This document shows positions 42,306 to 61,513 of a DNA stretch of 64,000 nt, one piece after another. Under the pieces are notes generated by a model that ran no database searches, was not told the DNA's origin, and saw only the letters and a list, made by a program, of their open reading frames with translations. The DNA comes from Actinomycetes bacterium (GTDB lineage: Bacteria > Actinomycetota > Thermoleophilia > RBG-16-64-13). The translations under genes were made by a program, and so were the position numbers. Within the stretch, counting starts at the first letter, position 1; every line of letters starts with the position of its first letter. The stretch lies in the NCBI GenBank assembly GCA_024637095.1, contig JAGXFV010000024.1, forward strand, positions 770 to 64,769. Reading direction: 5' to 3'.

Positions 42306-42342
42306 AAGCCGACCAGGGGGACTCGAACCCCTGACCTGCTCA
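42306..42342 (-). repeat. Copy 1 of a tRNA-3'-half-like direct repeat: T-arm AGGGGTTCGAGTCCCC plus an acceptor-like end. No 5' half is present, so it is not an intact tRNA.
   Basis: Plus strand aagccgaccagggggactcgaacccctgacctgctca; 26-nt identical core with copy 2 at 61488..61513. Confidence 0.7.
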
Positions 42343-42412
42343 AATTGCGAGTCCTCCAGGACCACCGTCCATGACCTGTTGCAGTGTGGATTGTGCAGGC
42401 ATTTTCGGGAGC

Positions 42413-44746
42413 CTAGCCCATGATCCGCTTGAGTAGGGTCTTCACGGGACCGCCGTGCTTCTTGACCACCATCACCGACGAAGGCGAGTAGCGGGCCACC
42501 TTCTCCGGGATCTCACCAAAGAGCACCTGCCCCAGCCAGGGTTCGTTCGCCGCGCCGATGGCCACCAGGTCGAACTCCCGGCTCGCCTTGGCAATACCGC
42601 CTGCCACTCCCTTGGCCTCCACAATGGTCGCGTCGGTGAAGACGTCTCCCTCGATCAGCTTGAGCGTCTGCTCGATGTTTTCCAGCGCGGCCTGACGCTG
42701 CTGCTCGCCGGCTCCCGGCGGCACCACCTGCATGCCGGTAACCGTCAGCTCGAGCTCCTCGGCGATCGCTCCCAGCATCACCGCAGCCAGTTGGGCGTTC
42801 ACGCCCCCGGCGGAGGGAAGCAGGCAACTCCGCGGCTGTCCCGACCCCACCAGTTTGAGCAGCATCACGTCGCACGGGGCCAGGCGCACCACTCTGTCGA
42901 CCACCTCGCCGAAGATGCGCCGGCGTGTGTTGGTGTAGCCCTTCCAACCCATGACCAGTAGCTCCGCGCGGTGATTTTCGGCGGCGGCCAGCAACCCCTC
43001 GGAGGCAACGTGGGCCACCACCAGGTCGGTATCGAGCTCAAAGCCGCGCTCGCGCGCGATAGCCCGCGCCTGCTCCAGTAGCGGCTCGCGATGGTGGCTG
43101 AAGCGGGAGCCCTCGTGGATGGGAACCTGGCGGGGCACCCGCACCACCGTGACCGCGATGAGGTGCACTCCCCGCTGGCGGGCGACCGGATAAGCAAATT
43201 CCAAGAGTCTCTCCACCGTATCCGGATTGTGCAGCGCGACCACCACGGTGGGTTCCTCGCTGATTGAGGGACCGCGCGCTTTGGTAAGCAGCACCTGGGG
43301 TTCGAGCTCGGCCGCACGCTTCTCGAAGACCGCGTAGTAGAGTAGCAATCCCAGCGCCACCCAGCCCGCGGTGACGTACCAGGCGACCGGCTGAAAGTTG
43401 AACTGGTAGAGGGCCAGGAAGATGTTGAGAGTGAAGCCCAGAACCGGCACCCAGGGATAGAGAGGCAGGCGGTAGCGGCGGGGAATGTCGGGATACTTGC
43501 GGCGCAGGGCGATCACCGAGAGGTTGACCATGGCGAAGGTCAGCAAAAACATCAGACTGGCAGCGGAGCCCACCGCTTCCAGGGGCAGGACCATAGCGAC
43601 GGCGAGGAGCATGGCGCCGGTAACCAGGATTGCGATCCGCGGCGTCCGCCGCACAGGGTCGATCTGGGACATCTTGCTCGGCAGCAGCACGTCCCGGCTC
43701 ATCGAAAACGCCACCCGGGAGGCGGCCATCACCGTGGCGTTCAGGGCGGACATGGTGGAAAGCAGGCCGCCGACGACGATGAGCGCCACGCCGAAGGCCG
43801 GCATGAAGCTCTCGGCGGCCTTGACGATCGCGGTCTCGCCGTGGAGCCCCAGGAACTGCCAGGAGGGCAGACCGCTCTCGGGACGGATGGCGGCCAGAGC
43901 CACGAACACGATCAGCAGATAGACCGCCACCGTCACCCCCAGGGAGATGAAGGTTGCGCGAGGGATGTTCTTCTCCGGCTCCTTGATCTCCTCGGAGACG
44001 GTGGCAATCAGGTCATAACCCTCGAAGGCGATGAAGGTGAGGCCCATGGCCACGAGCACGCCCCCCACGCCCTCGGGAAGGAAGGGCGTAAAGCTGTCGA
44101 GCGCCACGTCCGGCTCCCCCAGGATCCGGTTCAACCCGAAGGCGATGAAGACGGCGAGAATCGCCAGTTTGGCCAGAGTGAGGAAGTTCTCCGCCTTGCC
44201 GGTGACTGCAGCTCCGCGGATGTTCAGCCAGGTGAAGGCGGCACCCACCACCACGGTGACTGCGAGCATCGCCGACGTATGCCCGGTGAGCTCGAACAGA
44301 GATTCGGTCGTTCCGGGAAGGTACTTCTCGAAGACCTCCCAGAAGTAGCTGGCAAAAGCCAGAGCGTACAGACTACAGGCCACGGTGTAGGCGAACCAGA
44401 GCATCCAGCCGGCCACGAACCCGGCCACCCCCTCGAAGGCCATCCTGACGAACGAGTAGCCGCCGCCGGCCCGGGGCACCGCCGAAGCCAGTTCGGCGTA
44501 GACGAAGGCGGTCAGCAGGGTGACGAGGCCATTGGCGCCAAAAGCCAGGATGGAGGCGGGCCCCGCTTCGCCGGCGGCGATCCCCGTGAGCACGAAGATG
44601 CCCGCGCCGATCATCGCACCGATGCCGATCATGGTGGCTTCGAAGAGCCCCAGGTCGCGGGCGAAAGTGGCTTCTTGTCCCGTAGCCGCAGTCGGCTCGG
44701 TGGTCATCGGCTCGCTCGTCGCCAAGTGGCCCGCTCCCTCCGGCAA
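42413..44746 (-). CDS. APC-family amino acid permease (12 TM) fused to two C-terminal universal stress protein (UspA) domains
   Basis: 777 aa; N-terminal ...FEATMIGIGAMIGAGIFVLTG...; C-terminal tandem Usp-like ...VVVALHNPDTVERLLEFAYPVARQRGVHLIAVTVVRV... and ...ELLVMGWKGYT... Confidence 0.8.
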   Translation of the reverse strand: MPEGAGHLATSEPMTTEPTAATGQEATFARDLGLFEATMIGIGAMIGAGIFVLTGIAAGEAGPASILAFGANGLVTLLTAFVYAELASAVPRAGGGYSFVRMAFEGVAGFVAGWMLWFAYTVACSLYALAFASYFWEVFEKYLPGTTESLFELTGHTSAMLAVTVVVGAAFTWLNIRGAAVTGKAENFLTLAKLAILAVFIAFGLNRILGEPDVALDSFTPFLPEGVGGVLVAMGLTFIAFEGYDLIATVSEEIKEPEKNIPRATFISLGVTVAVYLLIVFVALAAIRPESGLPSWQFLGLHGETAIVKAAESFMPAFGVALIVVGGLLSTMSALNATVMAASRVAFSMSRDVLLPSKMSQIDPVRRTPRIAILVTGAMLLAVAMVLPLEAVGSAASLMFLLTFAMVNLSVIALRRKYPDIPRRYRLPLYPWVPVLGFTLNIFLALYQFNFQPVAWYVTAGWVALGLLLYYAVFEKRAAELEPQVLLTKARGPSISEEPTVVVALHNPDTVERLLEFAYPVARQRGVHLIAVTVVRVPRQVPIHEGSRFSHHREPLLEQARAIARERGFELDTDLVVAHVASEGLLAAAENHRAELLVMGWKGYTNTRRRIFGEVVDRVVRLAPCDVMLLKLVGSGQPRSCLLPSAGGVNAQLAAVMLGAIAEELELTVTGMQVVPPGAGEQQRQAALENIEQTLKLIEGDVFTDATIVEAKGVAGGIAKASREFDLVAIGAANEPWLGQVLFGEIPEKVARYSPSSVMVVKKHGGPVKTLLKRIMG

Positions 44747-45027
44747 GTCGTCGTGGCAACGCGCCCCGGGGCGCGACGGCTCCTCTGCGAGGTCCCGGTA
44801 TTTTACGGACCGGGGGCCCTGGGTTCAACCAAAGCTCCCCCGTCGCACGCCGCCTGTGCTGCCGAGTTTGTCCGAGGGCGGTTCCCCCGCTCAGAGAGGG
44901 CGCGACCAGGGTAGAAGGCGGTCGTGACGCCTCGGGGCGAATGCCCAGCCGTCGGACAGAACCTGCGTCGGAAAGAAGGTTGTCTGTGCCCGCAGCAAGA
45001 CCAACTGGACGGACCGGGTAGCCCAAG

Positions 45028-60357: not shown

Positions 60358-60371
60358 GGCAGATGACCGCC

Positions 60372-61244
60372 CTACTCCGCTGCGCCGCGCACGGCGCTCT
60401 CTCGGTTGGTCCGGGCAAACTCGAGGTAACTCGCCCATCCGAAGAGGATCCACGACACCATGTACCCAGCGTCGGACAGCCCGCCCGCTTGAAGGGCCCC
60501 CTGTATACCCTGGTAGCCGAATACGACGTCGGCTCCAAGGCCCACGATGAGCCCTGCGCCCAGCAACCAGAGCGAACCATCGATGTGATCCGTGCCGCGA
60601 CGAATCAGGAGCGCCGCCAAACCGGCAAGCAGAAACAGATCGCCCACAGGGTATCCGGCGGAGAGAGAATAGGCCAGAAGGTCGTCTCGGGGGGATCCAA
60701 GCGTCGGGACCAGGTAGAAGTACACCAACATCGCGCCCCCGGCCCCGATGAAGACGTTCAGGTTTACCGACAAGAACCCGAGGCGCACGCGGTCGCGCCC
60801 ACGCCGAGATAGGCAGACCAGACCGGCAAACATCAAGGGATAATAAGCTAAATAGGCCGCGTCGGCCGCCGAAGGGAAGGGCGTTGTTCCGCGGATGTTC
60901 TGGTAGTAGAAGTACAGAAAATCGCCTACAAAGAAGCCGGCAAAGCCAAGCGAGAGCAACCGCCAGGCCGTCTTTGACCGGTGATCGGATTGACCCTGTG
61001 CGGTACTCCACGCGAGCAGCGTGGCCGCCAAACCCACCGGGAGCATACCCAGGTTGGCGTAGAGGGATCGTTCCCCCACGTCTCCCCAGTTGAGGAGGAC
61101 CCCGAGGAGATACACAGCGCACAACCCGGTGGCCGCGAGAATAGTGAGAAACCAGGGGCGGGCCATCTGGTACTTGACCGCCTGGACAAGCGGTCGTGAC
61201 CTATGTGCCACGCTCGTCTCTGCTTCCGCGATCAGAGCCTCCAA
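60372..61244 (-). CDS. Polytopic membrane protein (>=7 TM), hypothetical; the start is uncertain (possibly M28 at ~61163)
   Basis: ...MARPWFLTILAATGLCAVYLLGVLLNW...GFAGFFVGDFLYFYYQNI... Confidence 0.5.
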   Translation of the reverse strand: MEALIAEAETSVAHRSRPLVQAVKYQMARPWFLTILAATGLCAVYLLGVLLNWGDVGERSLYANLGMLPVGLAATLLAWSTAQGQSDHRSKTAWRLLSLGFAGFFVGDFLYFYYQNIRGTTPFPSAADAAYLAYYPLMFAGLVCLSRRGRDRVRLGFLSVNLNVFIGAGGAMLVYFYLVPTLGSPRDDLLAYSLSAGYPVGDLFLLAGLAALLIRRGTDHIDGSLWLLGAGLIVGLGADVVFGYQGIQGALQAGGLSDAGYMVSWILFGWASYLEFARTNRESAVRGAAE

Positions 61245-61477
61245 TCATCCTGCTTGAGATTGCCAGCCCCGTGATCGAATGACCCTCAGCTTGGCTTCTT
61301 CTATCGGACTCCACCGGCGTTAGCTTGAGTGGTCTTGCCCCGATTCCGTTGACCCGTCAGTCCGCTGGCGGAAGCCAAGAGCAGCAGGGCCAAGAAGAGG
61401 CCAACATGGAAACGAATATGCCCGGTTCTGCCTTTGAGGCCGGTGGAACTGTCCCCACCTCATCCGGTTTTCTCTTT

Positions 61478-61513
61478 AAGCCGACGAGGGGACTCGAACC
61501 CCTGACCTGCTCA
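61478..61513 (-). repeat. Copy 2 of the tRNA-3'-half-like direct repeat (same orientation as copy 1)
   Basis: Plus strand aagccgacgaggggactcgaacccctgacctgctca; the minus strand reads ...CTCGTAA-TGAGC-AGGTC-AGGGG-TTCGAGT-CCCCT-CGTCGGC-T (anticodon-arm 3' side, T-arm, acceptor 3' strand), with no D-arm or 5' acceptor strand upstream. Confidence 0.7.

Follow-up and report, generated by a model that had tools for sequence, protein, structure and literature searches.

Two tRNA-Thr(CGT) 3' fragments and a probable stack of integration scars in an Actinomycetes genome

The 64-kb stretch of Actinomycetes bacterium DNA considered here (GCA_024637095.1, contig JAGXFV010000024.1, positions 770 to 64,769; hereafter the window) contains two co-oriented fragments of a transfer RNA (tRNA) gene, with about 19 kb of accessory DNA between them. 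A Logan contig (L004), identical to the window where the two overlap, extends the right end by 2.6 kb to ~66.66 kb, for a total of 66.6 kb analyzed. From left to right, the locus consists of a block of conserved core genes ending in a DUF456 gene (41813–42295, plus strand), a decayed tRNA fragment (copy 1), the accessory segment, a perfectly preserved tRNA fragment (copy 2), and the left end of an element of foreign composition. Quite likely, the 3' end of a tRNA-Thr(CGT) gene has served here as an integration hotspot, leaving attR-type scars stacked in series.

The two fragments share a 26-nt core, GGGGACTCGAACCCCTGACCTGCTCA, found at 42317–42342 and 61488–61513 of the plus strand in the same orientation, within near-identical stretches beginning aagccgac of 37 nt (copy 1) and 36 nt (copy 2); a preliminary description of this DNA, made from the letters alone, had these coordinates right. 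With up to three mismatches allowed, the core has just these two matches in the window, and none is expected from shuffled sequence. The key to their origin is a related Actinomycetota metagenome-assembled genome, Soudan_30 (locus L003). No other relative was found in the species-level genome collection; the DUF456 proteins of L003 and the window share 82% identity. The tRNA-Thr(CGT) gene of L003 is intact, lies to the right of DUF456 on the same strand, and includes the exact core. Copy 2 (61478–61524, minus strand) is a 47-nt block representing the 3' two-thirds of this gene: it takes in the 5' strand of the anticodon stem, the anticodon loop, the variable loop, the T-arm, and the 3' strand of the acceptor stem, plus TT, and is identical at 47 of 47 positions both to L003 (19353–19399) and to a prophage described below (L006, 30–76). 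Upstream of the block, the copy 2 and L003 tRNA sequences are unrelated. Copy 1 (42305–42352, minus strand) spans a degenerate anticodon loop, the T-arm, and the 3' strand of the acceptor stem, and is 89.6% identical to the L003 tRNA over 48 nt, with indels. In its anticodon loop, one base is substituted and 2 nt are inserted; between the T-stem and the acceptor strand, it has CTG in place of TC. Both fragments had been recognized as tRNA 3' parts in the preliminary description, but their extent was underestimated: they are ~47–50 nt long, with copy 2 reaching 61524 and copy 1 ~42352. Judged by sequence, the parent gene of both is tRNA-Thr(CGT).

Neither fragment is a functional tRNA, in agreement with the preliminary description. 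ARAGORN finds five tRNA genes in the window (Pro at ~9.0 kb; Trp, Met, Thr-GGT, and Tyr at 36.3–36.9 kb) and none at either repeat. Copy 2 scores 26 bits against the Rfam tRNA model, below the 29-bit threshold, with only model positions 8–63 covered, an unrelated hairpin in place of the D-arm, and no acceptor pairing; in copy 1, the T-arm alone is recognized. The copy 2 region folds no better than its shuffled versions (z = -0.18), while the real tRNA of the relative yields a clean cloverleaf (z = -2.3). The idea that copy 2 might be a functional tRNA lacking a D-arm was rejected on the ARAGORN, Rfam, and folding results. An expressed and functional pseudo-tRNA at copy 2 has no support.

Direct repeats might also be copies of a dispersed element resembling repetitive extragenic palindromes, or simply match by chance, with no relation to integration. 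The sequence is plainly that of tRNA-Thr(CGT), however; chance predicts no match at all, just two copies occur in 66.6 kb, and elsewhere among the loci fetched the core is seen only at orthologous or tRNA sites. This explanation has next to no chance of being correct, and can be considered effectively refuted. The findings that the preliminary description had named as speaking against an integration scar, an intact tRNA fold or additional copies, did not appear in the ARAGORN results or in the 66.6 kb, respectively.

The sequences adjoining copy 2 connect it to a particular kind of element. Directly upstream of the block in the tRNA sense, in the position of a D-arm but unrelated to one, is a hairpin with a GGAAAA/TTTTCC stem (61525–61543, minus strand). 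Beginning 45 nt to the right of the block is a pair of CGTAAGC motifs (61570–61587, minus strand), at 61570 and 61581 and therefore with 11-nt phasing. No other such pair occurs in the 66.6 kb, and only 12 of 2000 shuffled sequences hold one anywhere (0.006 expected per shuffle).

A scan of viral contigs with the 47-nt block returned one prophage, IMG/VR UViG_3300025721_000027 (L006), with an intact and identical tRNA-Thr(CGT). The tRNA gene is followed immediately by a P4-type integrase gene (Phage_integrase and Arm-DNA-bind_3 domains), and then by primase-helicase, terminase, portal, and Mu-F genes; between tRNA and integrase are two inverted CGTAAGC pairs, each with 11-nt phasing. A metagenome scan for the anticodon end of the block, a 30–60 nt gap, and a motif pair also returned a single contig, unrelated to the window (L008, from metagenome Ga0180009). 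Here the order is motif pair (GCTTACGTGGTGCTTACGTG, motifs at 896 and 907), hairpin (927–946, AGTGCCTG/CAGGCACT), block, and then ordinary host genes, with no intact tRNA; the phasing of the pair and its orientation relative to the block are as in the window, and the hairpin is in the matching position. Ga0180009 also yielded contig L011, in which host genes are accompanied by an intact tRNA-Thr(CGT) and an integrase sharing 90% identity with the L006 enzyme; two inverted motif pairs separate the tRNA from the integrase. The L011 tRNA and the L008 block carry the same compensatory T-stem variant. L011 thus resembles the attL, and L008 the attR, of a single element type whose direct repeat measures ~55 nt.

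Copy 2, the L008 attR, and the intact tRNAs part at the identical base, upstream of CTCACTCG. Copy 2 thus has in common with the L006 and L011/L008 phages its target tRNA, the first base of the block, and a CGTAAGC pair in the same orientation upstream of the block, and with L008 also the hairpin directly before it. Because it has the attR anatomy of this family, the element is to be sought on its right, the 5' side of a tRNA encoded on the minus strand. Copy 2 is probably an attR, that of an element to its right, with the 47-nt block as candidate att core. From their position, phasing, and recurrence beside an integrase with an arm-binding domain, the CGTAAGC pairs are candidate arm-type sites of such a P4-type integrase. 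The att signature would tie copy 2 to a small and previously uncharacterized group of phages at tRNA-Thr(CGT), with no gene-level homology to place it among them. Copy 2 was also considered as an intact attP, and this was rejected: its downstream side has neither motif pairs nor an integrase, and the post-block sequence differs. As a separate observation, the hairpin preceding the block at both attR junctions could be the terminator of the element's last gene, or a site for an accessory protein.

A simpler history for this junction would make copy 2 a resident tRNA gene that lost its 5' third to an unrelated deletion, or to an illegitimate insertion of foreign DNA, with no site-specific event. 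The identity of all 47 remaining nucleotides to the tRNA of the relative would fit, and no other tRNA-Thr(CGT) was seen in the segment. Two coincidences would be required, however: a breakpoint equal to the base to that of an independent attR (L008), and, adjoining it, a motif pair common to L006, L008, and L011. This history is very unlikely.

The DNA to the right of copy 2 (61525–64000, continuing to at least ~66.66 kb in L004) is the left end of a compositionally foreign element, of which 5.1 kb is visible. In open reading frames (ORFs) of the right flank, the G+C content at third codon positions (GC3) is 0.59–0.76, falling to 0.59–0.67 right of copy 2, as compared to 0.75–0.80 in the left core and 0.69–0.92 in the 19-kb segment; the low-GC3 patch reported earlier just beyond copy 2 is therefore real. 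It encodes hypothetical proteins, an SLH-repeat protein with matches to phage tail and endolysin PHROGs, and a DnaJ-domain membrane protein, and at the very end of L004 (~66.45–66.65 kb) there is a possible frameshifted remnant of a P27-type small terminase. No tRNA, no further copy of the block, and no integrase remnant was found in L004 to ~66.66 kb. The right-hand element is probably a degraded prophage or integrative element, with copy 2 as its attR, and an intact tRNA-Thr(CGT), with or without an integrase, would then be expected beyond ~66.7 kb. The glycine C-acetyltransferase gene that lies upstream of the tRNA in L003 could not be used to locate it: the best matches in an ortholog search were ~75% identical and came from many phyla.

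A side observation concerns L004 itself. Its first position corresponds to window 61478, exactly the first base of copy 2, and the contig covers the block and goes on into the right flank. For a contig from a de Bruijn assembly, such a start suggests that in that sample the block with its right flank has a second left-hand context, for example through strain heterogeneity or an excision product.

Several points weigh against reading the locus as scars of integration, and copy 2 as the work of this phage family in particular. There is no intact tRNA-Thr(CGT) and no integrase in the window or its 2.6-kb extension. The phage identity of the right flank is weak: three of its proteins have no close viral relatives in IMG/VR, and the small-terminase match exceeds the Pfam threshold only if two frames are joined by hand, with a weak 15.8 bits for a single frame. 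The spacer between motif pair and block is 45 nt in the window but 37 nt in L008; the sequences following the block are unlike (GGCTTAAAGAG in the window, GGCTTTCACTT in the L006 and L011/L008 phages); and outside the att region there is no protein or DNA similarity between the window and these phages. Binding of an integrase to the CGTAAGC pair would be a prediction from position and recurrence. No homolog of the L006 integrase was traced to samples holding this organism; the three closest Logan/JGI matches came from other samples, and an IMG/VR search with the integrase and the arm-pair pattern returned only L006 itself. Finally, the family signature is found on copy 2 only, and copy 1 is linked to no particular element.

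What copy 1 does have is a position at the edge of conserved synteny. Its site is a spacer of 117 nt onto which the DUF456 and amino-acid-permease genes converge. DUF456 closes the series of conserved core genes and, in all relatives, borders the hotspot on the left. Besides L003, three further relatives (L012, L013, and L014) share the DUF456 neighborhood with the window; across the four, the orthologs of the gene (identified by Pfam) are 82–95% identical, with synteny maintained leftward. Collinearity with L003, L013, and L014 runs through the ribosomal-protein genes, secE-nusG, and the tRNA cluster as far as DUF456, and ends at window position 42302–42312, which is where copy 1 starts. A break in homology coincides with a fragment at this left edge only. 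More distant DUF456 relatives (P0247, P0250) have another gene neighborhood and were uninformative on an empty site, and none of the relatives found has one. By the synteny breakpoints, the variable region has its outer (left) edge at copy 1.

L012 and L013 show this most sharply. They are 99.95% identical over 10,494 nt and part at the base corresponding to window 42306; past it, L012 has a copy 1 identical to that of the window until the contig ends, while L013 has unrelated DNA. L012 follows the L013 haplotype up to window 42222, at 8.6% divergence from the window, and then matches the window without mismatch for 160 nt (L012 10410–10570, window 42222–42382). The switch falls inside the 3' end of the DUF456 gene. 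Either L012 is a natural recombinant, produced by island exchange through flanking homologous recombination, or it is a metagenome assembly chimera.

The variable intervals of the other relatives beside DUF456 are at L013 10581–17895, L003 10515–18761, and L014 10564–17239. L003 and L014 have an ABC ATPase, Fic, a serine hydrolase, and an AAA_16 ATPase at this site; L013 has HEPN_Swt1/DUF499, BrnT, PIN_3/DUF6364, and ParE. It may be observed that the DNA adjacent to DUF456 differs in every relative and is rich in defense and toxin-antitoxin genes, among them the AAA_16 BrxC-like ATPase, as at hotspot-type loci. L003 also has a 14-residue relic, QTATTERYANLAND (19127–19168, minus strand), which matches the catalytic-tyrosine motif of P4-type integrases and has a stop codon before it. 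The intact tRNA-Thr(CGT), which shares its strand, is ~190 nt upstream of it. With a best E-value of only 0.01, this relic is suggestive that the L003 interval, too, may be integrase-made.

The segment between the scars (42353–61477) is accessory DNA, and its gene content, as annotated by Pfam, bears out the preliminary list of transporters, a catalase, a toxin-antitoxin pair, a transposase fragment, and a two-component system. It includes an amino-acid permease with Usp domains, an MFS transporter, a catalase, two ABC-2 transporter sets, and a TetR regulator; a hydrolase fragment, an ORF with cytochrome c similarity, a PIN_3/DUF6364 pair, and a Mutator-transposase fragment; and a response regulator and histidine kinase, with pilin-like and membrane ORFs. 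The search for integrases in the window covered ~35 ORFs by Pfam and all six frames by tblastn with 120 integrases as queries, P4-type only, and by neither method was one found in the segment; with its gene fragments, this accords with the decayed island envisaged earlier. The composition of the segment is native-like (GC3 as given above).

Only small pieces of the relatives' cargo remain in the window, clustered at 51948–52961. They lie in a central patch (51948–53006) with 88–92% identity by blastn to the relatives' intervals, and do not all match the same one: 51948–52016 matches both L003 and L014, 52028–52166 the 3' end of the L003 AAA_16 ATPase gene, and 52221–52961, which is the PIN_3 and DUF6364 pair, L013. 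The segment reads as old, ameliorated, mosaic island DNA, and not as one unit.

Two details of the segment deserve separate mention. The stretch at 51316–52166 consists of gene debris: a C-terminal alpha/beta hydrolase fragment (minus strand), an ORF with a cytochrome c domain (plus strand), and pieces of 64 and 139 nt. These two pieces are 16 nt apart in the window and 4.3 kb apart in L003, which implies a deletion relative to an L003-type interval. A long ORF at 59761–60300 (minus strand) has at its end a motif like the N-terminus of pilins, FGALELLVIIAIVAVV, and matches a pilin PHROG weakly; its upstream part is arginine/proline-rich and looks non-coding.

The preliminary description took the fragments to be the attL and attR of a single 19-kb island. 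That they are scars of integrase-type insertion is upheld here, but the arm-site pair and boundary at copy 2 and the mosaic segment argue against their being such a pair. If they were, the tRNA at attL would have been destroyed later, and the integrase lost. Direct repeats do bracket accessory genes, and no intact tRNA-Thr(CGT) is found within the 66.6 kb; furthermore, the single-island explanation overlaps the stacked one, in which copy 2 was also once the 3' part of a tRNA regenerated by an older island. The destruction of attL, however, would have needed a break at precisely the attP block boundary that L008 shows, and would have had to leave a motif pair of the phage family at the right distance; the segment is composed of pieces of three relatives' differing cargo; and the shift in composition is at copy 2 rather than at both ends. 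A single island is unlikely. Both copies are displaced 3' fragments, while a true attL would be a regenerated whole tRNA, and they are therefore not a simple attL/attR pair: they delimit old island DNA, yet would not be the two ends of one insertion.

A stack of attR-type scars could have arisen as follows. Elements with tyrosine integrases would carry, in their attP, an identity block extending from the anticodon stem to the 3' end of the tRNA. Each integration would restore the tRNA with element DNA, and displace the previous 3' part downstream as a dead fragment. If integrations occurred repeatedly at a minus-strand tRNA-Thr(CGT) beside the DUF456 gene, an early one may have left copy 1; the island DNA would next have undergone integrase loss, amelioration, rearrangement, and partial replacement. 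A later element with a CGTAAGC pair, related to L006 and the L011/L008 phage family, would then have displaced the 3' part of the tRNA current at the time, which became copy 2. Copy 1, with its substitutions and indels, would be the older of the fragments, and copy 2, which is perfect, the younger; copy 2 would have stayed perfect because it was under selection as part of a tRNA until the later integration. The order of these events is a reconstruction, and may have differed.

Scars of integration in tRNA genes are a common and well-understood kind of feature. In Islander (PMC4383910; see also PMC12424338), integration is described as regenerating the tRNA gene and displacing a fragment; the attP was anticodon-centered in 2083 of 3919 islands, and 125 tandem arrays at one tRNA gene were reported (PMC4383910). 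Fragments of the attR type are pervasive, and often mis-annotated as tRNA genes (PMC9897764). Tandems of a phage and an integrative and conjugative element at one tRNA gene are also on record (PMC13651849).

The two fragments in the window resemble the displaced tDNA fragments of Islander/TIGER (PMC4383910, PMC12424338, PMC9897764) in being 3' pieces of a tRNA, in their co-orientation, and in bounding foreign DNA. As in the anticodon-centered attP class, the block starts at the anticodon arm, and the fragment could be mistaken for a pseudo-tRNA. Unlike Islander islands, the locus has no intact cognate tRNA and no integrase visible in the window, and would fail the Islander filters; the older island is also decayed and mosaic. 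A co-oriented cognate tRNA is absent as far as ~66.66 kb, while in L003 there is one, in the expected orientation and on the expected side. Like published tandem arrays (PMC4383910, PMC13651849), the window has co-oriented fragments in series, with the younger DNA nearer the tRNA side; an Islander tandem array, however, needs an integrase for each member, and there is none in the 19-kb segment or in the visible 5.1 kb of the right-hand element. The locus works like a degraded tandem array, although with two fragments and no integrases it falls outside the Islander definition.

Outside the hotspot, one further difference from the relatives was noted. About 2.2 kb of the window (31898–34075), between rplJ (L10) and rplA (L1), is absent from L012 and L013. 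A NapC/NirT-type cytochrome (31875–32426, plus strand) and an NrfA-like cytochrome c552 nitrite reductase (32234–33937, plus strand; 465 bits) are encoded here; together they form an nrfHA-like cassette within the ribosomal-protein cluster, and no repeats are obvious on its flanks.

A broader interpretation can be put forward tentatively, as a possibility we would not favor at present. The interval between DUF456 and tRNA-Thr(CGT) might be a fast-turnover hotspot in this uncultured Actinomycetota lineage, with cargo rich in toxin-antitoxin and defense genes, where islands are exchanged from strain to strain by homologous recombination in the flanking core gene, as the L012 haplotype switch might illustrate, as well as by integrases. 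The elements with CGTAAGC pairs might, by the same proposal, be temperate phages of actinobacteria that form a family not described before, with tRNA-Thr(CGT) as their specific target.

The current understanding of how such elements work is not changed by this locus; its significance is in how this DNA is annotated and searched. The fragments are best labeled as attR-type remnants of tRNA-Thr(CGT), rather than as pseudo-tRNAs, and the boundaries given as those of a stacked array, with an old mosaic island at 42.35–61.48 kb and a younger element from 61.5 kb on. The 47–55-nt block together with the phased CGTAAGC pairs provides a usable att signature for a phage family of subsurface Actinomycetota, and the DUF456-adjacent interval can be flagged as a hotspot where related strains hold different defense and toxin-antitoxin cargo.

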